A stretch of DNA of 64,000 nt from a bacterium (GTDB lineage: Bacteria; Zhuqueibacterota; Zhuqueibacteria; Residuimicrobiales; Krinioviventaceae): assembly GCA_963674595.2 (NCBI GenBank), contig CAXXFV010000029.1:184600-248599 (forward strand), in the 5' to 3' direction. The notes under the pieces were generated by a model, which was given only the letters and a program-made list of their open reading frames with translations, was not told the origin of the DNA and did not search any database. The translations under genes were made by a program, and so were the position numbers. Each line of letters starts with the position of its first letter. Position 1 is the stretch's first letter. Below are positions 225-51,169 of this stretch, in pieces.

Positions 225-253
225 TTGCGCGGGTTTAAAATTATTTGTAAAAT
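225..253 (+). promoter_or_regulatory. Sigma70-type promoter
   Basis: TTGCGC-N17-TAAAAT; same -35 hexamer as repeated-element copies 3 and 4. Confidence 0.5.
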
Positions 254-375
254 AAATTAACGGGGCAAAGGACGTTTGTCCTGTTTTTCCACTATTATTT
301 TTGGGTTCGAGATATATAAAAAAATGATTATGTCCTATTAGAAATTAAACTCCTGTTGTATCTTTGTCATATTTA

Positions 376-1008
376 ATGGAGGAAAGAATTATGATTATTC
401 GCAAAAGGCCAGGATTTAGGAGTACGGATAGCAGCATATATCTTGTAAACATAGGAACAAACAATCAAGCTGAAAAGAGCCAGCCTTCCGGGCACCTTAA
501 AAAATCAGCATTTATACACGGGAGAAAAATTTTGACAAGGGGTATACTTTTTGTGTTTGTGCTCATTTTTTGCAGTTATTTCAATTATTTACGCGGATAT
601 AATATTGGAGTATCATATACATTAATTCAAGCGGAGATTATAAATAAAGATAATTCTCCAATTGAAATTATGGAATATACCGCCAGTATCTCACATGGCG
701 ATAATCCTTCTTATAATAACGGACTCAAACTTTACAACAAAAGTAATAAAAAAATTATACGTTTTGATATTCAATTTAAACTTTACGATGTTTATGGTGA
801 ACTTTTAGAGACATTAATAGGATATAGTACCAAGCCTATCGAAGGTGGCAATTTTTTAACAACTGATTGGTGTTTTGAAGAAAATATAGAAAATGAAGGT
901 ACCTTTATAAGTTTAAGAAGAGACGTCTCAACCGGGCACAAAACATTTGCAAGCGTTTCAAGACTTGCCTTTGAAGACGGTACGATTTGGCAGGCAGATT
1001 CAAACTGA
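376..1008 (+). CDS. Hypothetical membrane-anchored protein (beta-sandwich, FxLYD/DUF5780-like)
   Basis: One TM segment followed by 'NKSNKKI..F.I.F.LYD.YGE' and 'AFEDGTIW'; start codon uncertain. Confidence 0.6.
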   Translation: MEERIMIIRKRPGFRSTDSSIYLVNIGTNNQAEKSQPSGHLKKSAFIHGRKILTRGILFVFVLIFCSYFNYLRGYNIGVSYTLIQAEIINKDNSPIEIMEYTASISHGDNPSYNNGLKLYNKSNKKIIRFDIQFKLYDVYGELLETLIGYSTKPIEGGNFLTTDWCFEENIENEGTFISLRRDVSTGHKTFASVSRLAFEDGTIWQADSN

Positions 1009-1075
1009 TAAGGATTATTTCCTCGCCACGGAGATAGTGCCGTGTTATTCCTGTGAAACAGGAATCCAGATAAAA

Positions 1076-1155
1076 GCAGGGTGCTGGTTATGCCGCACCA
1101 TTCGGAGATCCATAAAATAAATACAGTTCAGTGGTGAAGCAAAACTACACCCTGC
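1076..1155. repeat. GTAG-type REP doublet (REPIN family A), copy 1
   Basis: GCAG-GGTGCTGGTTATGCCGCACC, ATAAATAC spacer, inverted partner GGTG...CACCCTGC. Confidence 0.7.
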
Positions 1156-1246
1156 AACTTAGCAGGCGATATTGTAATACTTATCTTTGAACTTGAGAAA
1201 AGGGCCAAAAATATTAAATTAGTCTATTATGAAAAATGGAGGCCCA

Positions 1247-1552
1247 ATGAGCAAACGAAGACGCTTTACTGCTGAAGAAAAAGTCCAAATTTTAAGAGAA
1301 CATTTAGAAAATAAGATCAGCATATCCGAAATAGCTAAACAATATAATATTCATCCTGTAGTTATACACAGATGGAAAAAAGAGCTCTTTGAAAATGCGC
1401 TTGACGGTTTTTCCGGCAAACATAAAAAGCGTAAAGGAAAATCTGTCAAAGAAGAACGTCTTGAAACCAAAGTCAGCAAAATGCAGGAAGTCATCACCGA
1501 ACTCTCCACAGAGGTCGTTGATTTGCGAAAAAAGTATTTTGGGGCAACCTGA
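1247..1552 (+). CDS. IS3 transposase OrfA (HTH)
   Basis: 'RRRFTAEEKVQIL...IAKQYNIHP..IHRWKK' HTH_Tnp_1 pattern; GGAGG RBS upstream. Confidence 0.9.
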   Translation: MSKRRRFTAEEKVQILREHLENKISISEIAKQYNIHPVVIHRWKKELFENALDGFSGKHKKRKGKSVKEERLETKVSKMQEVITELSTEVVDLRKKYFGAT

Positions 1553-2517
1553 AAAAGACATGGGTTGCTCCTGATGTTAGAGATGATGTTTTGTCTTCTC
1601 TGCAAACGTTAACGGCAAAGACCGGTGTTCCTTTGAGTTTATTACTCAAGACCATTGGTTTGTCCTGGACCCGGTACTATGACTGGCAAAAACGTTTTGG
1701 TCAACCAAATCAACATAACAGCGACACACCTCGCAGCTTTTGGCTGGAACCGTGGGAGTGTCAACGTATCATAAAATACAAAAAGGAACATATGCAGATC
1801 GGCTATAAACGACTGACCTATATGATGCTTGATGAAAATGTTGTTGCTGTGAGCCCGTCAACGACCTATCGTATTCTGCGGAACGCCGGACTCACAAGTC
1901 AATGGAATAACAGTACGTTACAATCAAATAAGAAAGGCTTTATTCAACCCAAAAGACCGCATCAGCATTGGCATATAGATATTTCCTATATTGCCTTTCA
2001 TGGTTCGCATCTCTTTTTGATTTCTGTACTGGACGGATTTTCAAGATTTATCGTTCACCATGAATTAAGAACTCATATGCAGGAATATGATGTCGAGATT
2101 GTACTGCAAAGAGCTTTGGAAAAATATCCAAATGAAAAACCTCGAATTATTTCCGATAATGGTTCACAGTTTATTGCCAATGACTTTAAATCTTTTTTAA
2201 GGTTAAATAATTTGACGCACGTTCGAACTTCGATTAATCATCCACAGTCGAATGGTAAAATTGAAGCTTTTCATAAAATCATTAAAAATGAATGCACCCG
2301 AATTCAAAGTATGATTAATCTGGAGGATGCCAGAAATAAAGTCGTACTTTATATCCATCAATACAACTATAACCGGTTACACAGTGCTATTGGATTTATT
2401 ACACCATTTGACAAATTATCAGGAAAAGCTGATAGTATTTTCAAAGAACGTGATATGAAACTTGAACAAGCCCGCCAAAGAAGGCAGGAAAACAATAAAA
2501 TTATAAAGGCAGCTTAA
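1528..2517 (+). CDS. IS3 transposase OrfB (DDE/rve), fused to OrfA by -1 frameshift
   Basis: A-AAA-AAG at 1528-1534 in the OrfA frame, with the -1 frame open into OrfB; WHIDISY, SDNGSQF and NGKIEAF catalytic motifs. Confidence 0.92.
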   Translation, partial: KKVFWGNLKKTWVAPDVRDDVLSSLQTLTAKTGVPLSLLLKTIGLSWTRYYDWQKRFGQPNQHNSDTPRSFWLEPWECQRIIKYKKEHMQIGYKRLTYMMLDENVVAVSPSTTYRILRNAGLTSQWNNSTLQSNKKGFIQPKRPHQHWHIDISYIAFHGSHLFLISVLDGFSRFIVHHELRTHMQEYDVEIVLQRALEKYPNEKPRIISDNGSQFIANDFKSFLRLNNLTHVRTSINHPQSNGKIEAFHKIIKNECTRIQSMINLEDARNKVVLYIHQYNYNRLHSAIGFITPFDKLSGKADSIFKERDMKLEQARQRRQENNKIIKAA

Positions 2518-2605
2518 AACTAACTTATTTCAAATATGCCTTTTCTCAAGTTTACCTTGAACCTTTACAATATGACTAATCATTCTTTCAACAAAGGAAT
2601 TATTA

Positions 2606-4135
2606 ATGATCAAAAAGATTAAATCTTTCCTGTTACTCAATTTTCTGCTTATTTCTTTTTTTTCTTGTAATTCATTAACTAAAAATGAAATAAATAATAA
2701 CGTTATCATAACAGGTCATATCGATCACTTTAATGAATACTCTAATAAATTTGTTTCAGTTAAAGCATTTGTAAATGAGTTTGCAAGCGGTGATCAAAAA
2801 GACTTTACTTCACTAATTAATGCAGATGGCGATTTTGAATTACAAATCAAAAAGGATTATCCTCAGGATATTTATCTGCTATATGCTGAAAGACTTTTTA
2901 CTATTTTTGTCGTACCAGGTGAAAAAATAAATACAAATTTCAATGCACGTCTATTAGCAAAAGGAGATGATATAAATAAGGCAATCACTTTTTCAGGTAA
3001 CAGTGCAATGCTAAACACAAATATCGTTAATTATCAAACACAATATTATCAATATGTTCCTGAAAAATTTCGTGGTGACCCAGACAAGATGGCACAAAAA
3101 TTAACACCTGATGAATATTCAAAATATATTTATAATCGGAGGGAAAAGCATCGTGAATTCTTGAATAATTTTATATCGAGAAATAAAGTAAGTGAAACTT
3201 TTATAAATTGGGCTACTTTTGAAATTGATTATGATTGTGCAGAAGCTTTATTAGATTATAGCAGTCAACAAAAAAAAAGAAGAAGAAAAGAAGGTAAATC
3301 TGATAACTACGATGCACCTGAATCATATTATAAGTTTGTTGAAGAATTTAAACTAGATAATAAAAAGGCTGTGATATCATCAGCTTATAAAAGTTACATT
3401 TCAGGATATAAACATTATTTAAAAAGAAAATATTTAAAAGAAGAAGATTGGAAGAATCGAAACACATTATACAAAAAATACTATGATATGCTTTCAAAAA
3501 ATGTACAAGGTTTTTGCAGAGAAGTTTTGTTAACACAATTATTCAGTGAAGTTTTAGAAAGCAGCTATTCAAATTCCTTAGACGATTATTATCAGTCTTA
3601 TCTAAAAACCGTTGAAACAGAATATTTAAAAAATTATATAGTCACTAAATATAATTTTGTTAATAGCGATACACTCATAGAATCACCTGAAAATGCGTCT
3701 CTAAATGAATTGACAGAGCAGGTTAATAAAGATTCTTTTTTATTATCAATAATAAATGAGCATAAAGGTAATGTTATTTATATAGATTTTTGGGCAACTT
3801 GGTGTGGTCCATGTTTAGCAGTAATGCAAATATTTAATAAATTACATGAAAAGTATAAAGGTAAAAACATTTCATTTGTTTATCTTTGTTCAAGATCATC
3901 AAGAAAAATGTGGGAATCGACAATTGCTGAAAAGAAGTTAAGTGGGCATCATTATTTTTTAAATAATAAACAATTTGAACTAATTAGCCCTTCATTCGGC
4001 ATTGTTAGTTTTCCTCATCATGCCATAATTGATAACAAAGGTAAGATAGTGAAAAAAAAGGCCGAAAGCCCAAGTATTGGTTATGGTAAAGAAATTAACC
4101 AAAAATTGATAAACGATTTAAATAATCTATTATAA
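2606..4135 (+). CDS. TlpA-family thioredoxin-like lipoprotein
   Basis: Lipobox FFSC; C-terminal 'YIDFWATWCGPC' and cis-Pro 'SFP'; AT-rich. Confidence 0.85.
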   Translation: MIKKIKSFLLLNFLLISFFSCNSLTKNEINNNVIITGHIDHFNEYSNKFVSVKAFVNEFASGDQKDFTSLINADGDFELQIKKDYPQDIYLLYAERLFTIFVVPGEKINTNFNARLLAKGDDINKAITFSGNSAMLNTNIVNYQTQYYQYVPEKFRGDPDKMAQKLTPDEYSKYIYNRREKHREFLNNFISRNKVSETFINWATFEIDYDCAEALLDYSSQQKKRRRKEGKSDNYDAPESYYKFVEEFKLDNKKAVISSAYKSYISGYKHYLKRKYLKEEDWKNRNTLYKKYYDMLSKNVQGFCREVLLTQLFSEVLESSYSNSLDDYYQSYLKTVETEYLKNYIVTKYNFVNSDTLIESPENASLNELTEQVNKDSFLLSIINEHKGNVIYIDFWATWCGPCLAVMQIFNKLHEKYKGKNISFVYLCSRSSRKMWESTIAEKKLSGHHYFLNNKQFELISPSFGIVSFPHHAIIDNKGKIVKKKAESPSIGYGKEINQKLINDLNNLL

Positions 4136-4167
4136 AAATGTAAAGCAGGTAACAAAGTAATACCCCC

Positions 4168-4863
4168 GCTCGCCCTGGAAAACATTTCCAGGGCGCAAAT
4201 CAGGCGGGGTATGTACCCCGATAAAACAAAATTTAAAGAAACCATTGTACAGATAAAATGAAACACTATAAAACCCAAAATGATTCTAATGTTTATTTTT
4301 CCACATGTACTATTGTGCAATGGCAATGTCTTTTTATAGAGCAAAAATATTTTCAGATAATAACAAACAGCTTAAACTATTGTATTAAAAACAAAGGACT
4401 GTCTATTATCGCGTATGTTATTATGCTTAACCATCTGCATTTAGTAACAGTTAATACAAAAGAAACCGTATTGTCCAACATCATGCGGGATTTCAAACGG
4501 TTTACATCCATACAGATTGCCGGACAATTGGAAAAAGACAACAAAAAATTGCTGCTGCATATTTTCAACAAAGCTGTGGAAGGCAGAGCAAAATCACAAC
4601 AATATAAAATATGGCAGGATGAATTCCATCCTAAAGCTGTTTATACACCCGATTTTTTAACACAAAAATTGGAATATATTCACAACAATCCGGTCAGAAA
4701 AGGACTGGTACAAGAACCTGAACAGTGGCGTTACAGCAGCGCACAAATGCTATTTATGAACGAAAAGAATGATGTAAACATTAATATGAATCTGCTATTT
4801 GAGGACTGATCAGGGCAAATGCCCCATTTTTTTAACGCCCTGGAAAAAATATCCAGGGCGAGC
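4168..4863 (+). mobile_element. RAYT (REP-associated tyrosine transposase) element bounded by palindromic ends
   Basis: Terminal GCTCGCCCTGG / CCAGGGCGAGC; hairpins at 4171-4195, 4205-4220, 4813-4824 and 4836-4860 flank tnpA. Confidence 0.85.
4258..4809 (+). CDS. tnpA: REP-associated tyrosine transposase (Y1 HUH, IS200-like)
   Basis: 'YF.T', 'AYVIMLNHLHL' HUH motif, 'IWQ..FH', 'YIHNNPV..GLV..PE.W.YSSA'. Confidence 0.92.
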   Translation: MKHYKTQNDSNVYFSTCTIVQWQCLFIEQKYFQIITNSLNYCIKNKGLSIIAYVIMLNHLHLVTVNTKETVLSNIMRDFKRFTSIQIAGQLEKDNKKLLLHIFNKAVEGRAKSQQYKIWQDEFHPKAVYTPDFLTQKLEYIHNNPVRKGLVQEPEQWRYSSAQMLFMNEKNDVNINMNLLFED

Positions 4864-4891
4864 AATTTTCTAACAAAATACTTTTAAGGCC

Positions 4892-6703: not shown

Positions 6704-6712
6704 AAAAAAGGA

Positions 6713-6779
6713 CGGTTCTACCGCGCCATTAAAAGATCGATAAATACAACTAAACGATGCAGCAAAACGGCACACTGAC
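6713..6779. repeat. REPIN family A, copy 2 (5'-truncated)
   Basis: CGGTTCTACCGCGCC, ATAAATAC spacer, inverted GATGCAGCAAAACGGCACACTG. Confidence 0.65.
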
Positions 6780-6800
6780 TATTAAAAAAGGAATACATCC

Positions 6801-7517
6801 ATGAAAATTATAAGAATTGCTATTTTTGTTTTTACACTCTTTTCTATTTCATACGGACAAGATTCATTAAAAAATTCAATTACAACGTTTGGCACAGTTC
6901 AATTAAACATTCCGGCGGATTATGCGCAAGTGTCTTTTATCATTAATGCAAATGGATCAACATTAAGAGAAGCTGTTGACAAGGCGAAAAAAGTAGTCCA
7001 GTCAATTACCACTGATTTATTTGAAATGGGTCTAAGCAAGAATAGTATTTCCACAACTCACTTTTATAGCGGTGAAAATTTCGGGGGAAAATCTTTTTTT
7101 ACATCTAAAAATGACTATAAAACAGAGATAACTACTTTTGTTAGAGTTGACAGTCTTGATATTTTGGAGGATGTTGTATTAAAAATAAGCGATCATAAAC
7201 CGGACGAAATATCAGATATATCATTTCAACTAAATAATCCGGAAAATTATAAAATGAAGGCTATAAATGAAGCAATTAAAAAAGCAAAACAAAAAGCAAT
7301 TATACTGGCAAAAGAAATGGATGTAGAAATTGACAAACCGATAAAAATCAAAGAGCTATTCGTGTCACAAGAAGCAAATTACAATTTTCGTGGACAAAGG
7401 ACGAATCATTTAAATGCAGTTTATATGGTTGATGGCGTGGACCAACTTGGTCAATCGATATATTCTGAAAAAATTAAAGTCGAAGCCCAGGTAGAATTAA
7501 TTGTGCTAATCAAGTGA
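6801..7517 (+). CDS. SIMPL/DUF541 family periplasmic protein
   Basis: Signal peptide; 'ITTFG.V....PAD.A' and 'A...AK.KA..LA..M.V.I'. Confidence 0.85.
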   Translation: MKIIRIAIFVFTLFSISYGQDSLKNSITTFGTVQLNIPADYAQVSFIINANGSTLREAVDKAKKVVQSITTDLFEMGLSKNSISTTHFYSGENFGGKSFFTSKNDYKTEITTFVRVDSLDILEDVVLKISDHKPDEISDISFQLNNPENYKMKAINEAIKKAKQKAIILAKEMDVEIDKPIKIKELFVSQEANYNFRGQRTNHLNAVYMVDGVDQLGQSIYSEKIKVEAQVELIVLIK

Positions 7518-7662
7518 GTTCGTGATAGCTGCAAACAGGTTTTCTGCCCGCCCAGGCATTTTCTCAGGGCGTGAATAGCTGCGCGTAGTTAAAGCGGGAG
7601 CAAAAAGAAATCTCCAGGGTTAGCAGCCTGATCAAGTATAAATAAAAAACGGTAAAAAAATC

Positions 7663-8797: not shown

Positions 8798-8887
8798 ACA
8801 ATTACCCGCGTTTTATTTCAGGAATAATTTTATCATATTGGGTATTGGAATCCCTGGTCAAACGAACATTATTAAAAAAGGCATAAT

Positions 8888-9232
8888 ATGATAATAAGAA
8901 AAGAACATGCCGTCAAAATTGATTTTGACGGTTTAAACATAATGGATTATACATCAGGTCTTGATGAATTGTCATCTTTTGCTGTTATCAATGTTCCAAA
9001 GAACGTCAGGCATAAATTATCATGGTCAAAAAGATCTGATAAATATTATTATGTCATAGAAGGTGAGATAAAATTTTCAATAGATTCTGATTTGGTTATT
9101 CTTCATCAAGGTGATTTTTGCATTATAAAAAAAGGGACCCGGTTTTTTTATCACAACGAATCAGACCGTGATGTCAGGCTCATATTGGTCCATACTCCTG
9201 ACTTTGATATAAATGAAGAGGTATTTGAATAA
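8888..9232 (+). CDS. Cupin domain protein
   Basis: 'YYYVIEGE..F.I......L.QGD...I.KG......N' cupin motifs. Confidence 0.85.
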   Translation: MIIRKEHAVKIDFDGLNIMDYTSGLDELSSFAVINVPKNVRHKLSWSKRSDKYYYVIEGEIKFSIDSDLVILHQGDFCIIKKGTRFFYHNESDRDVRLILVHTPDFDINEEVFE

Positions 9233-9368
9233 ATTTATTAATGAATATACGATGAATTTATTAATTCCGTCATTCTATAAGAACCGTCCCGAAATAAAGG
9301 TCAGATTTTAAGCCAGGAAGGTACCTCCGGCATGACAATTCGGTTTTTTTAATTGCTACACAACTGAA

Positions 9369-9440
9369 ACAGGGTGCCGGTTCTACCGCACCATTCGTTA
9401 TAAATAAATACAATTAAAGGTATCGTTAAGCTGTATCCAA
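9369..9440. repeat. REPIN family A, copy 3
   Basis: ACAG-GGTGCCGGTTCTACCGCACC plus ATAAATAC spacer; degenerate inverted partner. Confidence 0.7.
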
Positions 9441-10144: not shown

Positions 10145-10255
10145 GAATAAAATAAATTCATATCAAGATATCTTGTTATTAATTCTATTTACCGGGGGCT
10201 GCAATCCCTCAACAAGCAAAACCAGGGAACTTTTTACCGGATAAACACGTAAACA

Positions 10256-10284
10256 TTGACAAAAAATATCATTCTCCCTAAAAT
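10256..10284 (+). promoter_or_regulatory. Sigma70 promoter
   Basis: TTGACA-N17-TAAAAT. Confidence 0.6.
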
Positions 10285-27739: not shown

Positions 27740-27758
27740 AACATTTTTCAAAAACCGC

Positions 27759-27993
27759 TTGCCTTGATTTTATTTAATTTGTATTATTCTTCTATCAGCA
27801 CAAAGGACTGTTTTTCAGGACGATTTGGTCGCGCATGGGTGTCCCGATGACTTTTGCTGATTATCCATTTTAATATTTATATTCGGGAAGTTACAACACA
27901 CACGAGGAGAGATTGCGGCGGTCACAAGATCATATTCCGGTTGGTTCGTTGCTCAAATGTTTTGGGTTGGGTGGGGTGTGCGTGGTTATTGAT
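27759..27993 (+). ncRNA. Dispersed promoter-bearing structured element, copy 1
   Basis: TTGCCT-N17-TATTAT; ATCAGCA/TGCTGAT and GGAC/GTCC stems; ACACACGAGGAGAGATTG..CGG..CCGGTT..TTTTGGGT blocks shared with three other copies. Confidence 0.7.
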
Positions 27994-28159: not shown

Positions 28160-28580
28160 ATGAATATTGAAAACGTATCAACAGTATTAGGATTACTTGG
28201 ATTGGGCGGATTGCTTTGAACATATTTCCGAATATTATGGGAACGAAAAAACACAACATTATTACAAAAACAAGAAGTTAAAGAAAAAAGATATAAATGT
28301 ATTATTATTCTTTTTTATCTCTTTTAGATTTAAAAAAAACAAATATTTATTACACCAAAATAATCGAGAATATATTAAAACACCTGAAGATTTAATTGAT
28401 AAACTTAAAATTGAATGAAATAACATGATTCTGTTCGTATCAGACGAAGTTATTTACTCAATGAATAAATTTATCAAAAATCCTTCACCAGAGGATTATC
28501 GTAAAATGGCTATCGCTATGAGAAAAGATCTTTGGGGAGGGAAAATATCATCCAAAAATATTGAAAATTTAAACCTATGA
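28160..28580 (+). pseudogene. Decayed AT-rich membrane-anchored hypothetical gene
   Basis: Reads MNIENVSTVLGLLGLGGLL*TYFRILWERK...(frameshift)...LKIE*NNMILFVSDEV...AMRKDLWGGK; two in-frame TGA and one frameshift. Confidence 0.7.
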
Positions 28581-28585
28581 CGATC

Positions 28586-28727
28586 CTCAAGACGCGATTA
28601 GACGGGGGTATTTACCCCGATAACAAATAGTTTAAAAATGTAAATATCAATTTGAGCCCTTTATTTGAAAACAGATCAGGGCACATGCCCTGGTTTATAT
28701 ACCACCCTGGGGAAAATTTCCAGGGGC
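28586..28727 (+). mobile_element. Miniature RAYT-derived element, copy 1
   Basis: GGGGTATTTACCCCGATAA, then sequence homologous to the tnpA 3' tail, GATCAGGGCACATGCCC and the CCCTGG..CCAGGG hairpin. Confidence 0.8.
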
Positions 28728-32310: not shown

Positions 32311-32372
32311 CGCCTTGAGAATTTTTCTCAAGCGCACAATAAGTCAGGATATTTACCCCGGTAAATATCAAT
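32311..32372 (+). repeat. Partial RAYT-derived element (left end)
   Basis: CGCCTTGAGAA..TTCTCAAGCG hairpin, TATTTACCCCG and GTAAATATCAAT. Confidence 0.65.
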
Positions 32373-34582: not shown

Positions 34583-34642
34583 GAAACAGCAAAAAATTGT
34601 CAAAACCGTAATGAAATCATTATAAAGATTGAATGATTCTGA

Positions 34643-34800
34643 TCGCTTTGGTAAAAATTTCCCAGGCGAAATGAATCAGGTTTTTACCCCGATAACAAAA
34701 GCTTTAATCATGTAAATATTAATACAGACCCGTTATCTGAGAACGAATCAAAGAACATGCCCTGCTTTATTTAACGCCCTGGGATAAATTTTCAGGGGCC
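34643..34800 (+). mobile_element. Miniature RAYT-derived element, copy 2
   Basis: Left hairpin CGCTTTGG..CCAGGCG, TTACCCCGATAA, tnpA-tail homology, right TTAACGCCCTGG..CAGGGGC. Confidence 0.8.
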
Positions 34801-34868: not shown

Positions 34869-35954
34869 ATGAAAACTATTATTTCTATTATAGCATGTTT
34901 CATTTTATTTAGTTTTTGTTATTGTGAGCGGGAATCAGTAACGGCTATTAATTCTGATAATGCAGGCACTGGAAGTATAACATTTTCATTTAAAAAAAAT
35001 AATAGTGCCGATGGTGTTTGTAAAATTATTTTGGCCCTGTCAAGGACCGGTTTTGCGACAATTAATGATACTGTTGCCGTTACCAATGAAAACACAAGCA
35101 TGGTGTTTATTTCAAGCATTCCATTGGGTACATGGCAATTAAACGTTGATGGTGTGGATAATAACAACGCCGTATTATATAGCGGGCAAACAGAAGTCGA
35201 AATACAAGCGAATCAAACGACACAAGTAGATTTAACCCTTCGACCGGCCACAGGCTCTATTAATATTAACATTCAGTGGGGTAATAATGCGGGTAAAGCC
35301 GTTTATTTTACGAATGGTGAAAATTATATCAAGGTTAATAACTCACCTTTGCTTAATAATATGACAGATCAACTCACATTGGAAGCCTGGGTAAAACCGA
35401 TTAATCAATATTATAACTATATAATAAATAAAACAGGTCACCAATATACAATGGAACTGATAAACGGCTTAAGGCCGGCATTTAGATTTGATGGTCTAAC
35501 AGTTGATTATAATGACATGAATGATTATTGGGGACGGATCGTATTAAACACAACAATACCCGAAAATGAATGGACTCACATTGCGTATTCATATAACAGT
35601 ATGGAATCAAACGTTGATATATTTATTAACGGGGAACTTTATCAAACTCTTTATTCAACAGGTTTATTACAAACAAACACAGGAGATTTGTTAATAGGTG
35701 CCTATCTAAGTGATAATTATCGTTTATTCTACAAAGGTTATATTGATGAAGTTCGGATTTGGAACGTATCACGTTCTCAAAGTGAAATACAAGAAAACAT
35801 GGCTTGTCCGCTTGAAGGAAATGAAGACGGACTCGTTGCTTATTGGCGTTTTGATGAAATAGTTGATAATAATATAGTTGTAGACAAATCAGGAAATCAT
35901 AACAATGGTTATATTGTCGGAGAATTAAACCTGGCAGATTCTTTTGCATTTTGA
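34869..35954 (+). CDS. LamG/concanavalin-like domain lipoprotein
   Basis: 'TLEAWVKP', 'WTHIA..Y', 'IFING', 'G.IDEVRIWN..RS..EI', 'GLVAYWRFDE', 'DKSGN'. Confidence 0.85.
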   Translation: MKTIISIIACFILFSFCYCERESVTAINSDNAGTGSITFSFKKNNSADGVCKIILALSRTGFATINDTVAVTNENTSMVFISSIPLGTWQLNVDGVDNNNAVLYSGQTEVEIQANQTTQVDLTLRPATGSININIQWGNNAGKAVYFTNGENYIKVNNSPLLNNMTDQLTLEAWVKPINQYYNYIINKTGHQYTMELINGLRPAFRFDGLTVDYNDMNDYWGRIVLNTTIPENEWTHIAYSYNSMESNVDIFINGELYQTLYSTGLLQTNTGDLLIGAYLSDNYRLFYKGYIDEVRIWNVSRSQSEIQENMACPLEGNEDGLVAYWRFDEIVDNNIVVDKSGNHNNGYIVGELNLADSFAF

Positions 35955-36729: not shown

Positions 36730-36931
36730 AAAACAAAACACAATATAAAGCAATTTTGCTCATCCGGGGATTCCGTTCTCCGGTTATAAATGACAAGGAG
36801 TACCTGCTCCATATTGCTCACCTTGAGAGTGTTTTCCAAGACGTGGTCGAGCAGGATATTTACGCTCTATAAAATTTACGAAAAAATAATTTCTCCCCTT
36901 TGCCCTTTTTTCAACATTTTTCAAAAACAGC

Positions 36932-37140
36932 TTGCCTGGATTTTTTATAATTTGTATAATTCATTTGTCAGCAAAAGGGACCGTTATTCAGGATGATATG
37001 GGTGTTCCTGGATTGCCTCTTACTGATTTATAATTTCATCTTAAAAAACGGGTTTTAACAACACACACGAGGAAGAGATTTCGCCGGTTATCAAATTATA
37101 TTCCTGTGGTCTCACTTGTAAATGATTAGGCTGGATGCGT
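36932..37140 (+). ncRNA. Dispersed promoter-bearing structured element, copy 2
   Basis: TTGCCT-N17-TATAAT; GTCAG/CTGAT and GGGAC/GTTCC stems; AACACACACGAGGAAGAGATT block; homology to copy 1 starts about 30 nt upstream of the -35. Confidence 0.65.
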
Positions 37141-38369: not shown

Positions 38370-38397
38370 CCGCTCAAGGATTGCTTTCCCTGAGCGG
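38370..38397. repeat. REP-like hairpin related to the RAYT ends
   Basis: CCGCTCAAGGA..TCCCTGAGCGG, 36 nt after a stop codon. Confidence 0.45.
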
Positions 38398-38449
38398 AAA
38401 ACAGGAGTAACTATCCCCTCTTTAATCAGCTTCCAACATTAATATGACC

Positions 38450-38769
38450 TTTACCCGGATAAAGAGTGCCGAGTGAAAACGGCCGTATTCTGCTTTACCA
38501 TTAAAGGTATGGAACCTTCGGATATCGGGTATATCCTTTAAAATAATTTCGGTATCGTGGTACGCTCCGGACTGCATGGCGCACCGCTTATCCACAAACA
38601 TATCGGCACATTTCCGATCGGCTCCGTTCGTGTCAATCCGTCACATCTCACCAGTGATGATGAAATAGAGGCATTTACCGATGCCGTACATTTAAAAAAT
38701 CCCGGGGAATACCCGGCTGATATGTTTATTAAAAATATAGAAAAAATCAGGGAGCACAACCAGTCGTAA
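38450..38769 (+). pseudogene. C-terminal remnant of a class V aminotransferase/cysteine desulfurase
   Basis: FTIKGMEPSDIGYIL*NNFGIVVRSGLHGAPLIH...GSVRV; matches R-x-G-x-H-C-A-P with Cys changed to Gly; in-frame TAA; no 5' half. Confidence 0.8.
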
Positions 38770-42416: not shown

Positions 42417-42472
42417 TTTTTATTGATATAATCATTAATTCGGCTGAACCGGCTGAAAGAAAGTGAGGAATT

Positions 42473-43915: not shown

Positions 43916-44003
43916 AACAACAACAATTAACAGCGACACCGGATTGAGCAGATTTAATACATGCTGTTCAATCCGGGCTTGCACATTGAAAGGGGTAAAC
44001 CTG

Positions 44004-44588: not shown

Positions 44589-44756
44589 ACAGGACGGTCA
44601 TAAAATTCCTTATTATAAAAATAAAGGGAGAAACCAGAACACTCTTGCCGCAAGGATGGTATATTATTTAAAAAGCCCTTGCACCAGGGACACGAAATTT
44701 GTATCATTTATTTGTCAGAATGAGAGTTGTATCAACATCAAAAATTGGAGCATCTC

Positions 44757-45512
44757 TTGAAAAAAAGACAAAAAGTCAGACTTGGAATTTTACTCTTTTC
44801 CTTTTTTTTATTTCCGGTTACATTTTACTATCTGTCACCCTACCTCATTGTCCAGGCAACCAGTGAAGGCATCATCAACGGAAGTTTTATTTTATTTTCC
44901 CTTTTATTTTTATCATCATTAATATTGGGACGCGCTTTTTGCGGCTGGGTATGCCCGGCAGCAGGCTGTCAGGAGGTAATCACCAATGTACGTGAAAAAA
45001 GGGTAATCAAAGACAACTGGATAAAATGGGTGATATGGCTTCCATGGATTTCGGCAATTATTGTCATGGCGGTTCGAAACCATGGGTATGACAAAGTTAA
45101 TTTCCTATATCAAACAACCTATGGTTTTTCCATTAATAATATTTATTCGAGTATTACCTATGTTTTTGTCCTGCTGCTCATCGTACTTCCGGCCTTTATA
45201 ATCGGCAAACGATCATTTTGCCACCACATTTGCTGGATGGCTCCCTTTATGATCATCGGCAGAAAAATCCGAAACCTGTTTAAATGGCCGGCCCTGCAGC
45301 TCGTTGCGGACAAGGACCAATGCACACAATGCCAGACATGCACCAATCATTGTCCGATGAGTCTGCCGGTAAACAAGATGGTCCAGTCAAGTCACATGGA
45401 AAACGCGGAATGTATATTGTGCGGTTCCTGTATCGACGGCTGTCCCCAGAGTGTCATTCATTATAAATTCACCCATACCAAAAATCCAACCCGGGACACA
45501 AACAAGGGATAA
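44757..45512 (+). CDS. Membrane 4Fe-4S binding protein (NapH/MauN-like polyferredoxin)
   Basis: 'GRAFCGWVCP', 'FCHHICW', CxxCxxCxxxCP twice; GGAG plus TTG start. Confidence 0.9.
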   Translation: MKKRQKVRLGILLFSFFLFPVTFYYLSPYLIVQATSEGIINGSFILFSLLFLSSLILGRAFCGWVCPAAGCQEVITNVREKRVIKDNWIKWVIWLPWISAIIVMAVRNHGYDKVNFLYQTTYGFSINNIYSSITYVFVLLLIVLPAFIIGKRSFCHHICWMAPFMIIGRKIRNLFKWPALQLVADKDQCTQCQTCTNHCPMSLPVNKMVQSSHMENAECILCGSCIDGCPQSVIHYKFTHTKNPTRDTNKG

Positions 45513-45532
45513 CATATTATTTTAAAAATACC

Positions 45533-45744
45533 TTGCGCTAATATTTCAGAATTCGTATTATTGATTTATTATTTTAAGGATTGTTTTTCATCATGATTTG
45601 ACCGGGCAGGGGTGTTCCTGATTTTTCACATATAAAATGTGATTTAACAGTACACACAAGGAAGAAATTGAGCCGGTCACAAAATCACAATCCGGTTATT
45701 TCACGTCAAAATTTTTGGGTGGGTAAAGAGCATGGATAATTGAT
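45533..45744 (+). ncRNA. Dispersed promoter-bearing structured element, copy 3
   Basis: TTGCGC-N17-TATTAT; AAGGATTGTTTTTCA..GGGTGTTCC; ACACACAAGGAAGAAATTGAGCCGG..CCGGTT..TTTTTGGGT. Confidence 0.65.
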
Positions 45745-45748
45745 ATTA

Positions 45749-45800
45749 GCAAGGTGCCGCTCCTGCCGCACCATCTATAACCGATATAAAAAATACCGAG
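45749..45800. repeat. REPIN family A, copy 4 (degenerate)
   Basis: GCAAGGTGCCGCTCCTGCCGCACC plus AAAATAC spacer, directly after element copy 3. Confidence 0.6.
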
Positions 45801-45840
45801 TAACATAAATACATTTGATCTGCAACTTTATTAAACAGGA

Positions 45841-48800
45841 ATGAATATGAAAATAATGAAAATAGGTGTCTGTCTTTTAGCGCTGCAGGCAAGCTATGTC
45901 GGAACGCCATTGTATGCGCAGCAGTTGCCGGCTGGTTACGAAGTAAGGTATTTTTCAAAAAACCCGCAAGCCAACGGTGAAACTGATTTTAAAGGAGAAA
46001 CGTCAACTTTAAATACGGACCAGCGTATTGAATTCCTGAAATTTTATGCCGACCAGGTTTCAACATATTATGGAGATAAAGACCTTGATACTAAAGTGGT
46101 TAGCAACAAAGAGGCCCTCGATTTTTTTAACAGTATAAAACCCCAGCCTCTTCCTTCCATCAGAAAAAGAGTAAATCTTGGTCAATGGAAATGGCTGAGT
46201 TCCAAAAAAGGAAAATGTCAAGAAAGCATCCAAAAACTTTTAAAATTCAACGGTGCAAAAGATATTCTGTTAAAAGAGGGCGTGCTGAATTTTCAAAACA
46301 ATGCCGCATGGAAGTGGAATTTCCCGGCACAAACATGGCGTTTTTCCCTCCAATGGAAGGCCCGTTTGCTGGATGACAATTCAAACGCTGAATTCCTGTT
46401 GCTTGATGGCAGAACAGATAAAATATTCGCAAAAATTGAAATGATTAAAAATACCTGCTCCTACTATTCCCTGGGCGAAAAAATGCAGGCGACCCGCTGC
46501 CGCACTGGTGCCTGGTACGATATCAAAATCGAGGCGGACCTGGACGGTGACGACGGCAGACCGCATTATAATGTGTTTATCAACGGAGAACAGGTTGGCG
46601 ATTATGTTGCTGCGAACGAAATCACCGGTCAAATCGATGCTTTTATGGTTAAAACCTCGGGAGGGATTGAAACGGATGAACTGTACGGCGTTGGCTATCA
46701 CAAAACCACGGATGTGTCACAACCCTATTATCCCAAAACCTTTATTGATGAGCGGTTTGACAGGGAACCCTGCATTGACGGCTGGCAGGACAACAGCTAT
46801 GATGACACCTGCTGGCAGATAACCGACCTTCCGCATGTGGTGGGATCGGAAAGATATGAAGGACAAGATCTGTTTCTCAGAAAAACCGTTAAAATTGAAA
46901 ATCTGCAGCGGGCTTATTTAAATATCGAAACGCTTGATCCGGGCGGGGAAATATGGATAAACGGTAAAATGGCCGCACTTGTCAAGGACCGCTATCCCAT
47001 CCGATTGGACGTCACGGATTACCTGCTCCCCTATTCGGAAAACCTGATCGCCATCAAAGTGAATGCCTTTTATCTGACGCCAAAACTAGGCGTGCCCCTT
47101 GGACAGACCTACCTCGATCATAATTACGGATGGTTTGCAGGGCGGGCATTCCTCGACCTGGTCGGAGAGACCTTTGTAAATAACGTATTTTTTTATACAA
47201 AATCCATAAAAGATGACAAAGCTCTGGTCCACGCAAAAATTGATCTTGAACACAGGGGAACGCTTGGGTTCAAAGGGAAAATCAAAATTAAAACAGTTAT
47301 CTGGGACGAGAATACCCAAACCGGGACAACGCCGGCGGCAGAGGTGCCGGATGTGTTGATCGGACCCGGAATTAAGGAATTTACGACTGACTTTGAGATG
47401 GAAAATCCGAAACTGTGGTCGCCTGAATCACCCACGCTTTATAAAGTGATAGTCGAACTGGAAAAAGACGGCATTGTGGTTGATGATTATGTATTTACCA
47501 CCGGCATCCGCACCGTTTCCCAGGAAGGCGGCACCTTTCGTCTTAACGGAAAACCCGCCATGCTGAACGGCGTGCAGATATTCGGGTTCCGAGGCCCGAT
47601 AGAAAACCTGGCTACATGGCTGCGCTGCCCTCCGGATTACTGGGTCGCCAAAGAGATGCTCATGACGCAAAAGATGAACAGCAACCTGCTCAGAATGCAT
47701 GCTCACGGATGGAAAGAAAAAGCGGTCGGCGTGAATGACGAACGCTACTGCGAACTGGCTGACCAGATGGGCATTATGCTGATATGGAGTCCTCCGGCGT
47801 GGCTGCGGGAAGGTGACTGGGGAAGGGCCGATTTTGACGGGTATAACAAATATATGAAACAGGTCCAAAACCACCCGAGTATTGTAATGTGGGAGGTTTC
47901 AAACCATCCCAATACCTTTAAAAAACACGAAACCTACGAAAGCGATCTGTTTTGTGAAGCGGCCTACCAGGCAGTTTATCCCTACGACCCCAGCCGGCTG
48001 ATTTCGCTCACATCTCATATCGGTCATCTGCATTACGGTAATGATGAGGGGACCATAGATCAGCGCGGGGGCAAAATCTCACTGCCAAAAACCGCCGTTG
48101 CCGACCAGGGCAACCAGGACGCCCTTACCGGCTATGGCACATCAAAAGATTTTTACGGCGATAGCCTCAAGTCCTCGAAAGCATGGACAGCCCCCATGGT
48201 AACCCGGGGCAATCAGGACGCGCCCACAGGCTATGGCAATGATTGGAGCCAGTTGCGCACCTGGCCGGGGGCCTATCGCCAGGATTTTCTGGACAGTAAG
48301 GAAAGGGCCTTTTTTAATTTTGAACACCAGGAATCCATCGGTCAGCCCAACTGGGACCTATGCAAAGGAAAACCCTGGTATCATTTACCGTCTTATGAAT
48401 GGCCTTATGACGAGGGAAGCATCGGTAAAAAGCTGTCATTTGACGAATGGCGGGTGAGCCAGGCCTGGCAGGCCTTTTCGGCCTATGAGGCGATTAAAAA
48501 AATGAGAAAACTTGATTATGACGGTTTTTCATGGTGCTGCCTCCACGGTGGGGCCAATTCCGTAACCTACAGGAAACCACTGATCGACTTTGAAGACCAC
48601 GCCAAACTGGCTTTTCATATTCACAAAACCGTTTTTAACAAGGTTCTTGCCGGCAGCAATAATGTTGATGTGGTTTATGGGCCGGACGATATGATCACCC
48701 CAATGGTGCTTAACCTGGGCGAGCAAAAAAATGTCAATGTGGCTGTCATTATCCGTAACAAATTCAATGGCCGGGAGCTTGAAAAAAAGGTCTACCATGA

Positions 48801-48906
48801 TGTTGTACTGCCGGCAGGAAGAACAGTCACGGAACTGGCGCCTTTTAAACCCGCCCTGGACCAGGAAGGGCTTTACTGGATAGAGTACAGGGTGGAAAAC
48901 AAATAA
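45841..48906 (+). CDS. Glycoside hydrolase family 2 (beta-galactosidase/glucuronidase-like)
   Basis: 'IWING', 'PKLWSPESP.LY', 'GIRT......F.LNG', 'N..R.H', 'DQMGI', 'NHPSIVMWE..N'. Confidence 0.88.
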   Translation: MNMKIMKIGVCLLALQASYVGTPLYAQQLPAGYEVRYFSKNPQANGETDFKGETSTLNTDQRIEFLKFYADQVSTYYGDKDLDTKVVSNKEALDFFNSIKPQPLPSIRKRVNLGQWKWLSSKKGKCQESIQKLLKFNGAKDILLKEGVLNFQNNAAWKWNFPAQTWRFSLQWKARLLDDNSNAEFLLLDGRTDKIFAKIEMIKNTCSYYSLGEKMQATRCRTGAWYDIKIEADLDGDDGRPHYNVFINGEQVGDYVAANEITGQIDAFMVKTSGGIETDELYGVGYHKTTDVSQPYYPKTFIDERFDREPCIDGWQDNSYDDTCWQITDLPHVVGSERYEGQDLFLRKTVKIENLQRAYLNIETLDPGGEIWINGKMAALVKDRYPIRLDVTDYLLPYSENLIAIKVNAFYLTPKLGVPLGQTYLDHNYGWFAGRAFLDLVGETFVNNVFFYTKSIKDDKALVHAKIDLEHRGTLGFKGKIKIKTVIWDENTQTGTTPAAEVPDVLIGPGIKEFTTDFEMENPKLWSPESPTLYKVIVELEKDGIVVDDYVFTTGIRTVSQEGGTFRLNGKPAMLNGVQIFGFRGPIENLATWLRCPPDYWVAKEMLMTQKMNSNLLRMHAHGWKEKAVGVNDERYCELADQMGIMLIWSPPAWLREGDWGRADFDGYNKYMKQVQNHPSIVMWEVSNHPNTFKKHETYESDLFCEAAYQAVYPYDPSRLISLTSHIGHLHYGNDEGTIDQRGGKISLPKTAVADQGNQDALTGYGTSKDFYGDSLKSSKAWTAPMVTRGNQDAPTGYGNDWSQLRTWPGAYRQDFLDSKERAFFNFEHQESIGQPNWDLCKGKPWYHLPSYEWPYDEGSIGKKLSFDEWRVSQAWQAFSAYEAIKKMRKLDYDGFSWCCLHGGANSVTYRKPLIDFEDHAKLAFHIHKTVFNKVLAGSNNVDVVYGPDDMITPMVLNLGEQKNVNVAVIIRNKFNGRELEKKVYHDVVLPAGRTVTELAPFKPALDQEGLYWIEYRVENK

Positions 48907-48956
48907 TAAAACAAACCTGATTTGATATTTACCAAAACATAAATATTGTTATAAAT

Positions 48957-48982
48957 CACCCGGAGGTTCCGGCCTCCGGGTG
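48957..48982. terminator. Strong GC hairpin after the GH2 gene
   Basis: CACCCGGAGG-TTCCGG-CCTCCGGGTG. Confidence 0.6.
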
Positions 48983-48992
48983 TAAAAATCCC

Positions 48993-49219
48993 TTGCGCTA
49001 ATATCAGGGAATTCGTATTATTCTCTATCAGCATTAAGGACTGTTTTTCAGGACAATTTTGTCGGACACGGGAGTCCATGAAAACCTTTAGCTGATTTAC
49101 CATTTTATTAATTACGGGATTCAACAGTACATACGAGGAAGAGATTGCGTCGGTTACAATGTTATTTTTCGGTTGTTATACTCTCAAAATTTTTGGGTTG
49201 GGTGGAGTGTGGATTATTC
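48993..49219 (+). ncRNA. Dispersed promoter-bearing structured element, copy 4
   Basis: TTGCGC-N17-TATTAT; ATCAGC/GCTGAT, GGACT/AGTCC and GACAA/TTGTC stems; ACGAGGAAGAGATTGCGTCGG; TTTTGGGTTGGGTGG. Confidence 0.7.
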
Positions 49220-49225
49220 AAAACT

Positions 49226-49284
49226 GTAGGGTGCCGGTTCTACCGCACCTTTCCGTGATTTATATAAAAAATACGATTAAAAGG
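49226..49284. repeat. REPIN family A, copy 5 (canonical GTAG REP)
   Basis: GTAG-GGTGCCGGTTCTACCGCACC plus AAAATAC spacer, directly after element copy 4. Confidence 0.75.
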
Positions 49285-49294
49285 AGTTATTATT

Positions 49295-49549
49295 ATGCGT
49301 GATACAAAATATGCAAGAGAATTGGCAAGTGTATCCTATGATTGGAAGGATTCAGAAGCAAGAATTGAAAGGCTTTTTATTAAGGCACGTGGACATGAAG
49401 AGATCAGATTCTCTTGGTGGCGTGGTAATAGATTGATTCCCAGACCTCTTGACGTAACTGAGGATGAACTTTTTGAATTATTAAAAAGTGCAAGAAAGAA
49501 AAATATTTTCTCAGAAAATTTTCTTGAAAAGGTAAAAAAAATTTTATAA
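49295..49549 (+). CDS. Small hypothetical protein
   Basis: AGGAG RBS; 84-aa ORF with 'EEIRFSWW....PRPLD..E..L..L'. Confidence 0.75.
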   Translation: MRDTKYARELASVSYDWKDSEARIERLFIKARGHEEIRFSWWRGNRLIPRPLDVTEDELFELLKSARKKNIFSENFLEKVKKIL

Positions 49550-49580
49550 AACCTAACTAAAATTATTTTTTGCTCTGAAA

Positions 49581-49708
49581 AAGTTGCAGGCCGAGTTCTC
49601 ATGTGAAACCCGACAAAAAGATAGCTAGAAGGAAAATATTTATACAAATACTAAAAAATTGATAAAAGTATCAATTAAATGATGGCCCAAATAACCCATC
49701 ATACAACT
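49581..49708. repeat. REPIN family B, copy 1 (~130 bp)
   Basis: Direct repeat of 50361-50491; GTTG...CAAC ends with two internal hairpins. Confidence 0.8.
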
Positions 49709-49720
49709 TTAAAGGAAACA

Positions 49721-50383
49721 ATGAAAACGATCTTCTATGAAACTGATATATCAAGTTTTGAGGATTTTCACGATAGTGATTGGGTACAGAAAATCATCAC
49801 TCTTGTAAAAGGTACTGATATTGAACCTGTGGCAGAAGAATTTGTCTCACATTGGTGGGGGTGCGCTAAAGCTTTTGTCTTACCTTGGTTGTTAGTAAAT
49901 GGAGTCTATGACAGTGTTTATAGTGCAATTTTATTTCCACCCAACAAGTCGCGTCAGGATGTATGGAATGAGTATTTGCAGCATAACGAGTTTAAAGGAG
50001 CATTGTGGAAACTAGCAGAAGGTATGTATTGTAGTTTATACTATGCTTATGAAAATTTAGTTGTCAATACACTTATAAAAATAAAGAATAGACGTATACG
50101 CGTAACTGACCAGGACTTTAAAAAAGTATTGGTTGAAGTTTATGGAGATAAATTTACACATAGGATATGGAATGACAATTTTATCGCCGTGTCGAGAGAG
50201 ATAAGGAATTGTATTGTTCACAACGTCGGTAAATCATCCCCACGACTTCAGAAAATGAGCCCATTGCCACTTATTAAGAAAGGAAATATATTAATATCAG
50301 CTTCCGACACTCGAATGTTATACAACACATTAAAACCACTTGCTTTTGAGATTTTGAGTGAAGTTGTAGGCCGGATTCCATGA
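49721..50383 (+). CDS. Hypothetical protein with HEPN-like R-N-x3-H motif
   Basis: 'Y.AYE' helix and 'REIRNCIVHN.G'; stop codon lies inside the downstream repeat. Confidence 0.6.
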   Translation: MKTIFYETDISSFEDFHDSDWVQKIITLVKGTDIEPVAEEFVSHWWGCAKAFVLPWLLVNGVYDSVYSAILFPPNKSRQDVWNEYLQHNEFKGALWKLAEGMYCSLYYAYENLVVNTLIKIKNRRIRVTDQDFKKVLVEVYGDKFTHRIWNDNFIAVSREIRNCIVHNVGKSSPRLQKMSPLPLIKKGNILISASDTRMLYNTLKPLAFEILSEVVGRIP

Positions 50384-50491
50384 GAGAACCCGGCAAAAAG
50401 ATAGCCTGAGAAAATATTTATATATATACTACAAAATTGATAAAAGTAAGTTTCAGTTAAGTGATAGGGCATCATAGCCCATTCTACAATT
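50361..50491. repeat. REPIN family B, copy 2
   Basis: TTGTAG-GCCGG..CCGGC ... GGGC..GCCC-ATT-CTACAA: two inverted GTAG REPs. Confidence 0.8.
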
Positions 50492-50578
50492 ATCTACATT
50501 TTCAACAGAAATATCCCCTATCACATTATCCCAGGAAACGAAAATCCAGAAACAGTAAAAAAATAAAGGAGAAATGTG

Positions 50579-50983
50579 ATGAAATGTCCGTTATGTGGTT
50601 TAGAGAACCCTGAATCTGCAATGCAGTGTGATTGTGGTTATTACTTTATTAAACCAAAAGAAACTACAACAAAAACAACGACAACAACAACTGATAATTC
50701 GCAAAGTTCATTTAAACAATTTGAAGTAAAATCACATTTTAAAACCTTGTTAGCATATGGCAACTTTACATCAGGATTCGGTTGGGTAATAATCTTCTTA
50801 GGAATAATTGGAATAATTGGCGGATTAGCTAGCGGTAAAGACATTGGATTTGGTATAGCTGTTGGAGGAATATTCATAATTTTATCTGGACTTAGTATGA
50901 TAATTTTGGGCCAATTGATTAGCTGTTTTGTCTCAATAGAAAGAAATACAAGGGTAACTTATGAGTTACTACAGGCAAAATAA
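50579..50983 (+). CDS. Zinc-ribbon plus two-TM membrane protein
   Basis: 'MKCPLCGLENP.....CDCGY.F'; two hydrophobic helices; 'IERNTR'. Confidence 0.75.
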   Translation: MKCPLCGLENPESAMQCDCGYYFIKPKETTTKTTTTTTDNSQSSFKQFEVKSHFKTLLAYGNFTSGFGWVIIFLGIIGIIGGLASGKDIGFGIAVGGIFIILSGLSMIILGQLISCFVSIERNTRVTYELLQAK

Positions 50984-51007
50984 AATATCAAAATAATAGT
51001 TATTTCA

Positions 51008-51169
51008 CTCGCCTTGAAAACCTTTCCCAAGGCGCAATTTAGAGGGAAATTTACCCCGATGACAATTGGCATAATCATGTAACTATCAATATAGGCCCGT
51101 TATTTAAGAACGGATCAGGGCAAATGCCCTGTTTTATTTTAGGCCCTAAAAAACATTTCCAGGGATAGC
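51008..51169 (+). mobile_element. Miniature RAYT-derived element, copy 3
   Basis: CTCGCCTTG..CAAGGCG, TTTACCCCGAT, tnpA-tail homology, GATCAGGGCAAATGCCC, GCCCT..CCAGGG. Confidence 0.8.

Follow-up and report, generated by a model that had tools for sequence, protein, structure and literature searches.

The DNA considered here is a stretch of 64,000 nucleotides (nt), called the window throughout, that spans positions 184600-248599 of contig C29 in a bacterial genome assembly (GCA_963674595.2; 6.62 Mb, 37 contigs, overall guanine-plus-cytosine (GC) content near 0.385). It carries a gene for a REP-associated tyrosine transposase (RAYT; REP, repetitive extragenic palindrome) and dispersed copies of a ~160-nt repeat, named MINI, that consists of the two ends of the RAYT element without its gene. 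Our reading, which we give a probability of about 0.5, is that the window is part of a strain-variable accessory compartment (C29, C13 and parts of C26, C18 and C10) with several independent repeat families, and that the termini of MINI are hot spots of recombination or cleavage, probably by way of the RAYT. Defence genes, toxin-antitoxin pairs and low-GC singletons abound in this compartment, and between its genes the DNA is a patchwork of those repeat families.

A sequence-only reading of the window had described AT-rich genes set repeatedly between a promoter element or REP and a RAYT-end palindrome, and had taken this for an integron-like capture and expression platform. All of the elements it named are present: the RAYT gene between palindromes, the mini-elements, four copies of a promoter-leader and REPs of one type (REP-A) at 1072, 6710, 9367, 45745 and 49222. 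Its looser examples at ~7547, ~10223 and 38370 are present as one solo left hairpin and two degenerate MINI copies. The recurring layout is largely as described and goes beyond chance, whereas the promoter-cargo-end cassette and the integron analogy are unsupported as stated. Repeat families were defined by direct-repeat search, alignment and iterative nhmmer searches, and gene-based counts come from a crude longest-ORF set (5264 open reading frames (ORFs), 89% of bases covered). Coordinates without a contig name are window positions.

Strain breakpoints and the ends of a RAYT-derived repeat

The complete RAYT element, or REPtron, occupies 4165..4866 (+), with a left hairpin at 4171-4195, the RAYT gene at 4258-4809 and a right hairpin at 4836-4860 followed by AGCA. 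The two palindromes that bracket the gene are 92% alike. MINI has a hairpin at each end, the left one reading TGCT-CGCCYTGGRAA...TTYCCARGGCG and the right one again followed by AGCA, and a core that holds three small hairpins; its termini are inverted repeats (TGCTCGCC... and ...GGCGAGCA) with a RAYT-derived core of ~110 nt between them. Since the RAYT gene is flanked by MINI model positions 2-73 on the left and 69-161 on the right, MINI corresponds to the ends of the RAYT element minus the gene. It is best described as a non-autonomous internal-deletion derivative in which both terminal hairpins are kept. The ~40 nt of RAYT 3' coding end retained in dispersed copies mark these as deletion derivatives of the whole element, and an intermediate form (C6:27756-28361) keeps the RAYT start and 3' end and has lost the middle. 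In the MINI alignment the hairpins are preceded by (T)GCT, with no GTAG or CGTC tag there. Among the 22 readable copies, at least 16 have the step C|T before the stem, the dinucleotide being part of the conserved terminus, and the left flanks vary, with no conserved target tetranucleotide evident.

Sixteen public runs were listed for window 44000-53999, 15 of them with at least part of it, and no RNA run was listed for the stretch. Contigs from four were compared over 34000-53999 at a likeness of at least 85%; those from other studies are 95-99% alike. Run X1 matches the window throughout and may be its source. X3, which spans 45125-51095 incompletely, has no rearrangement in the covered part. 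Parts of 37335-40669 are uncovered in X3 and X4, and X5 has a joint from 36935 to 44687 at depth 2.

In X4, a single contig of 7336 nt matches 44743-49177 and 51237-53747, with a joint from 49177 to 51008 and 16 letters between. Twelve of these letters match the window to ~49189, and the remainder completes the canonical TGC-TCGCC left terminus of MINI. The 3' end of the promoter-leader repeat (LEADER) abuts the first base of MINI copy 3 (51008..51170, +), and the joint leaves out REP-A and all three of the ORFans that lie between them in the window (49295-49549, 49679-50383 and 50576-50983, +; span 49295..50983). The two sides of the joint have no homology to one another. LEADER copies 3 and 4 share their REP-A extension, so that the X4 state is more likely a deletion, putatively anchored at the left end of MINI.

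In X5, one contig of 6803 nt matches 46123-49249 and has a joint that leads from 50461 to 51171, one base beyond the end of MINI copy 3, with 14 letters between. The positions of the records and their listed loose ends lead us to infer ~246 unlike letters after 49249, with likeness back at 49630. Together with the joint, this indicates that ORFan1 is replaced in X5 and that ORFan3 and MINI are absent. This first X5 difference is bounded by the final base of the REP-A hairpin (49249), by the ~90-nt repeat described below and by the position one base past the MINI right terminus. In two other X5 contigs, likeness ends at 34777, the start of the right hairpin of MINI copy 2 (34640..34798, +), and returns at 36015. 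The LamG-like gene found here in the window (34869..35954, +; GC 0.34, Pfam Laminin_G_3) gives way in X5 to 3.1 kb or more of different sequence, and window 34778-36014 is unmatched.

Of the eight breakpoints, four or five are no more than 5 nt from a repeat terminus (22 termini, covering 1.2% of the stretch; P 1e-6 to 1e-8), and three are within 1-2 nt of a MINI terminus or hairpin foot. Cargo that is present in one strain and missing in another has breakpoints at MINI and REP termini. A scan of metagenome contigs for closer strains, made with the protein of the GH2 gene downstream of LEADER copy 3, gave three loci, the best 56% identical.

The RAYT-end repeats also have a preferred place along the chromosome. 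As had been claimed from the window, they follow same-strand genes: genome-wide, a same-strand ORF precedes MINI in 31 of the 36 copies with a left end, and in 20 of the 31 the distance from the stop codon is 61 nt or less. MINI is closer to the upstream stop than to the downstream start in 13 of 16 co-oriented spacers (P 0.02). The cargo is indeed AT-rich, with a median GC of 0.29 for the 23 genes just upstream of MINI vs 0.39 among C29 and C13 genes (p 1.6e-7). Nor are the repeats as frequent beside core genes. The 46 MINI loci detected by nhmmer (20 on C29, 18 on C13 and 8 on C26, C18 and C6) stand beside low-GC singletons, and 38 of them are confined to the two contigs C29 and C13, which together are 0.33 Mb out of 6.6 Mb; MINI is not a high-copy, chromosome-wide repeat. 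The spacers between cargo genes and the next gene measure 19-622 nt, most of them 70-450. The clearest array, at C13:75-85 kb, is a co-oriented run of unrelated small low-GC singletons with a MINI 5-42 nt behind each. Tandem duplication was considered as its source and rejected because the genes of the array lack paralogues.

The RAYT gene and the repeat families of the compartment

The RAYT protein passes the NCBIfam model REP_Tyr_transpos (NF047646; 108.8 bits, cut-off 80) and is below the cut-off of the IS200 model (20.6 bits vs 55). The gene is intact, and its translation contains NHLHLV and YIHNNP, which we take to be the HUH motif and the catalytic tyrosine. The closest homologues are 68-71% identical and come from assemblies labelled candidate division KSB1 and Syntrophaceae; their elements keep the same end architecture, and one of them, read by eye, has paired stem changes that preserve the hairpin. 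At least three further RAYT genes are present in the genome (C29:40576-41121, C26:87966-88496 and C23:97828-98376), one with an in-frame TAG, each with a flanking palindrome family of its own. Palindromes that seem to belong to the families of the C29:40576 and C26:87966 genes are scattered through the same intergenic regions, and a LEADER copy is found directly upstream of the C23 RAYT-like gene.

Besides the MINI copies at the breakpoints, the window has MINI copy 1 at 28579..28726 (+; nhmmer score 124.8) and a partial copy, the left part, at 32311..32366 (+), 63 nt after the stop of a gene with a type IX secretion tail (31106-32248). Degenerate copies are additional to the 46 loci and were read by eye. 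They comprise a solo hairpin like the MINI left end at 7543..7575 (+), 26 nt after the stop of the SIMPL gene; a fragment at 10205..10270 (+), compared by eye with the MINI alignment, after the ORFan at 9440-10144; and a copy at 38370..38470 (+), 37 nt after the stop of an outer-membrane-barrel-like gene (37230-38333). The complete RAYT element has a low-GC cargo gene in front of it: a thioredoxin-fold gene (2606..4135, +; GC 0.27, Pfam Redoxin/Thioredoxin_8) ends 32 nt before its left end. Five MINI copies on C13, C26 and C29 (for example C29:72120-72200) are joined at one and the same junction to another hairpin element (GTAGGGGTTAAAAATTTTTAACCCCTAC...), which stands in place of the left hairpin's 5' half. 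They form a composite subfamily, which has spread to multiple sites.

LEADER is ~204 nt long and consists of a sigma-70-like promoter (TTGCCT-17-TATTAT or TATAAT) and then ~150 nt of conserved leader. Genome-wide, nhmmer gave 126 hits, of which 94 are near full length, and 91 of these 94 face a same-strand ORF, mostly 28-350 nt away. Density is 5-10 times higher on the repeat-rich contigs. Among the genes it fronts are higB, hsdR, gmrSD and a GH2 gene. Copy 1 (27747..27949, +) has its promoter, TTGCCT-17-TATTAT, at 27759-27787, and copy 2 (36920..37115, +) has TTGCCT-17-TATAAT at 36932-36960. In copies 3 and 4 the promoter element is directly followed by REP-A, at 45745 and 49222, as had been noted before. 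Copy 3 with its extension spans 45522..45778 (+; LEADER 45522-45705, REP-A 45745-45778) upstream of the GH2 gene (45841-48906), and copy 4 spans 48983..49257 (+; LEADER 48983-49181, REP-A hairpin 49230-49249). A weak, divergent copy is present at 220..363 (C29:184819-184962, +; nhmmer 40.8, model 8-201) upstream of the ORF at 364-1008.

The sequence-only reading had joined this promoter element and the RAYT-end element into one unit, and here it did not hold. Along C29 (+) and C13 (-), MINI comes next after LEADER in 16 cases; 10,000 shuffles gave 15.7±2.0 (P 0.54). The order is that of random interleaving, and the three-part cassette is therefore not a unit. LEADER instead reads as a general, lineage-specific, portable promoter-leader with a putative Shine-Dalgarno-like site and UUG start, and not as the 5' half of a MINI cassette. 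Its copies have a conserved GAGGAAGAGA followed by UUG (for example at 49133-49200), and the UUG frame, which continues into intI in the integrase copy, has a median of 34 codons vs 22 and 13.5 in the other two frames (30 copies). The frame has no codon periodicity, and single codons dominate its conserved positions, so coding constraint is not demonstrated; it may be an upstream ORF or merely a conserved ribosome-binding module. RNAalifold gave no consensus structure for 76 full copies, LEADER 4 has a chance-level match only in Rfam (E 0.84), and BLAST found LEADER in none of 40 related genomes, none of which is of the same genus.

REP-A is a small hairpin tagged with GCAG/GTAG, present in 23 copies, about half of which have an inverted partner ~25-30 nt away (by eye). 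In the window it forms a REPIN-like inverted doublet at 1072..1150 (+), a GCAG-tagged hairpin with its inverted partner ~30 nt downstream; a doublet at 6710..6790 (+) upstream of the SIMPL gene (6801-7517); and a hairpin at 9367..9399 (+) upstream of the ORFan at 9440-10144. Two copies of the ~90-nt repeat are found among the three ORFans (49583-49673 and 50363-50452, +). Both families are confined to the same few contigs, save for one weaker ~90-nt match on C6. Noncoding modules of 400-430 nt, made of MINI, other repeats and the start of LEADER, are duplicated around unrelated genes at 90-97% identity (C13:69950-70358/75433-75840, C29:68159-68554/72183-72580 and C29:116202-116630/118308-118741). 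A unit of LEADER, higB and higA is tandemly duplicated, with proteins 97-99% identical. Two young duplications, described below, and this tandem duplication point to ordinary recombination as also at work here.

The repeat-rich contigs differ from most of the genome in composition. The standard deviation of gene GC is ~0.07, vs 0.03-0.06 on most other contigs, and genes below 0.32 GC account for 16-28%, vs 6.7% genome-wide. Their defence-type content includes three HigB/HigA-type pairs, a type I restriction-modification system and an EcoRII-Dcm-Vsr set, and further GmrSD, SIR2-TPR, Schlafen-like, RelA/SpoT-like and Imm26 proteins and a TIR effector domain. Many of the proteins have no Pfam family, and almost all genes of these contigs, the MINI neighbours included, lack paralogues. 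An IS3-family insertion sequence (IS) of two ORFs occupies 1229..2517 (+; Pfam HTH_Tnp_1 and rve) and has 100% identical copies on other contigs. IS copies in the compartment are 100% identical to copies on other contigs and LEADER is shared between contigs; contamination of the bin is for this reason an unlikely source of C29 and C13.

Several other features were observed. No Rfam family reaches its gathering score in the window. A noncoding tandem array at C29:170610-172308 has ~6 copies of a ~280-nt unit, 89-92% alike. A sugar/MFS transporter gene is split in two ORFs (15772-16065 and 16143-17171; model positions 2-86 and 125-450) and is probably broken. Short ORFs at 59607-60263, 60381-60794 and 61555-61996 carry LVIVD repeats and part of a periplasmic-binding/LacI-type domain and seem to be left over from broken genes. 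A 26-nt DNA repeat within genes (43592-43703, 41158-41183 and 60685-60710) coincides with the C-terminal sorting domain of type IX secretion and reflects protein-level conservation, not a mobile repeat.

Mechanism and competing explanations

If the RAYT acts at MINI, it would bind the terminal hairpins on single-stranded DNA and nick beside them. The nicked end would be joined to a second nick, made nearby with little site specificity, and the outcome would be either a deletion anchored at the MINI end or excision of MINI together with its neighbour. Such events would end exactly at a MINI terminus on one side and at a loosely placed position on the other, as in X4 and X5. Leftward deletions would be tolerated up to a gene under selection, leaving MINI a few bases behind the stop codon, which would explain why MINI is found there. 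For the E. coli enzyme TnpA-REP, the published study describes cuts in single-stranded DNA at C|T, up to >400 nt from the functional REP that is required, as well as strand transfer in vitro, and proposes circle excision by two cuts at different sites (PMC3333891; see also PMC8266576).

Several points weigh against this account. The structural differences number only three, all from assembled contigs at depth 2-4 among the matches listed, and the proposed tie of the RAYT to the strain events is drawn from sequence and these assembled contigs. Breakpoints also occur at repeats that are not ends of this RAYT element, namely the LEADER 3' end and the ~90-nt repeat. With MINI copies only ~70-90% alike, there is no evident recent activity, and the deletion model does not explain the low GC of the genes upstream of MINI. 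Two young duplications of ~400 nt (96.5% and 96.8% identical), flanking 1-3 genes, run across MINI ends into neighbouring repeats; recombination or duplication would yield them, and RAYT excision from left to right end would not.

The most serious rival treats the repeats as passive markers. Repeats of the REP type, or of the kind known as miniature inverted-repeat transposable elements (MITEs), would gather where insertion is tolerated, and genes would turn over without the RAYT, by homologous or illegitimate recombination, with imported DNA recombining through conserved flanks. The place behind stop codons would then reflect insertion preference and selection against disrupting the next promoter; E. 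coli REPs commonly sit close behind stop codons. Those same 96.5% and 96.8% duplications of MINI, REP and LEADER start around 1-3 genes, whose limits ignore MINI termini, speak for it, as do the LEADER-higB-higA tandem duplication, the breakpoints at LEADER and the ~90-nt repeat, and the IS copies identical to those on other contigs. Three breakpoints, however, are 1-2 nt from a MINI terminus or hairpin foot and not inside shared homology, the X4 joint has no homology between its sides, and MINI adjoins low-GC singletons more closely than shared residence on these contigs would account for (p 1.6e-7, with C29 and C13 genes as the reference). We regard passive marking as rather unlikely.

A dedicated platform would go further than hot spots. 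Here RAYT/REP chemistry would move single-gene cassettes, each an ORF with its 3' MINI, downstream of the promoter module in an integron-like manner. It is a doubtful proposal. Equally doubtful is its chemical core, namely that the terminal hairpins of the RAYT element might act as recombination sites, such that a gene and its 3' hairpin would be excised as a single-strand circle and re-inserted at other hairpins. In favour are the C13 array, the unit missing from X5, which is ORFan3 with its MINI and ends exactly at the MINI right terminus, the X4 contig in which LEADER abuts MINI with no cargo between, and the intact RAYT gene. The cargo of toxin-antitoxin pairs, immunity-like and TIR proteins and proteins without a family also resembles that of chromosomal integron cassettes. 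What stands of the capture platform proposed by the sequence-only reading is the association of the repeats with low-GC cargo and with strain breakpoints. The integron analogy does not stand: LEADER and MINI are unpaired, spacers are long and the hairpins local, no cargo gene is duplicated or at two sites in the genome, and the X4 state reads better as a deletion. Cargo genes moreover have upstream spacers of their own and are not promoterless, no circular junction or insertion event occurs among the assembled contigs compared, and the MINI copies are diverged.

That the arrays are cassettes of a true integron, with MINI or a neighbouring repeat as attC, is very improbable: the genome does encode one bona fide integron integrase with LEADER directly upstream (C3:115823-116767 (-), L031:15820-16812; TIGR02249, 453.7 bits, cut-off 265), but this gene is on another contig, with no MINI by nhmmer and no cassette array recognised beside it, the MINI alignment has no RYYYAAC...GTTRRRY pair (by eye), MINI folds as several local hairpins and not as a single attC-like one, and a crude genome-wide script for attC-like sites gave 4 unclustered candidates, none on C29, C13 or C3. 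The integrase gene adjoins a phage terminase gene on its upstream side and is near a CRISPR-Cas locus. The arrays of that locus (L031:1426-2352 and 8317-11843; C3:101426-111843), with a period of 74-75 nt, adjoin Cas1, Cas2, a reverse transcriptase-primase fusion and a Card1-like CARF nuclease.

Relation to known systems and meaning

The element is close to the RAYT-REPIN systems, or REPtrons, of E. coli, Pseudomonas and Stenotrophomonas. As in these, a single-tyrosine (Y1) HUH protein that passes the RAYT model is encoded between cognate palindromes that recur extragenically, stem pairing is kept in homologues from other genomes, and several RAYT genes each have a REP type of their own. MINI differs in that its remnant of the RAYT coding end sets it apart from a plain REP doublet and its hairpins have a GCT triplet in place of GTAG/CGTC, although REP-A does carry GCAG/GTAG. 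Classic REPINs are dispersed along the core chromosome, unlike the 46 MINI loci, of which 38 are on two contigs by low-GC accessory genes. MITE-like derivatives of IS200/IS605, the palindrome-associated transposable elements, are also comparable. MINI resembles IS200/IS605-derived MITEs in having both ends with subterminal hairpins, a deleted interior, no autonomy and an intermediate form. It differs in that its parent scores as a RAYT and not as IS200 and is not multi-copy, and that a conserved target tetranucleotide is not evident.

Integrons and integrase-less attC clusters share with the C13 array the co-oriented, unrelated small genes with a structured 3' repeat each, and with the compartment the accessory and defence cargo and the strain presence/absence limits at a repeat boundary (three events). 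What is different here is the missing tyrosine recombinase at the array, the lack of attC architecture and of a single promoter of the Pc type, and the long spacers. IS91/ISCR elements capture genes by a rolling-circle mechanism: HUH chemistry with one fixed and one variable end mobilises neighbouring genes, by Y2 enzymes that use ori and ter ends and with the transposase gene carried along. The enzyme here is a Y1 RAYT that would act, if at all, in trans. Mobile promoters and the Correia/dRS3 regions of Neisseria, which are repeat-flanked variable islets, offer further parallels. LEADER, like a mobile promoter, is a homologous promoter segment upstream of unrelated genes, and short repeats stand at the limits of strain-variable genes as in the Neisseria islets; the differences are the ~150-nt leader with its Shine-Dalgarno-like site and UUG start, and that LEADER was not found in the 40 related genomes.

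What RAYTs do for the cell is still treated as an open question in the literature (PMC8266576, PMC5581495). Among the titles and abstract openings returned by full-text searches, no paper linked RAYTs or REPINs to gene cassettes or to hot spots of accessory genes. The window offers a natural case in which exact RAYT-derived termini coincide with the loss or swap of genes between close strains, in a compartment rich in defence genes. If the terminal hairpins did serve as recombination sites, they would represent an HUH-based counterpart of integrons, and RAYTs would have a physiological role, the reshuffling of accessory and defence genes. A causal link would mean that RAYT/REP systems shape accessory-gene content, a question made directly testable by one enzyme and a small set of defined ends.

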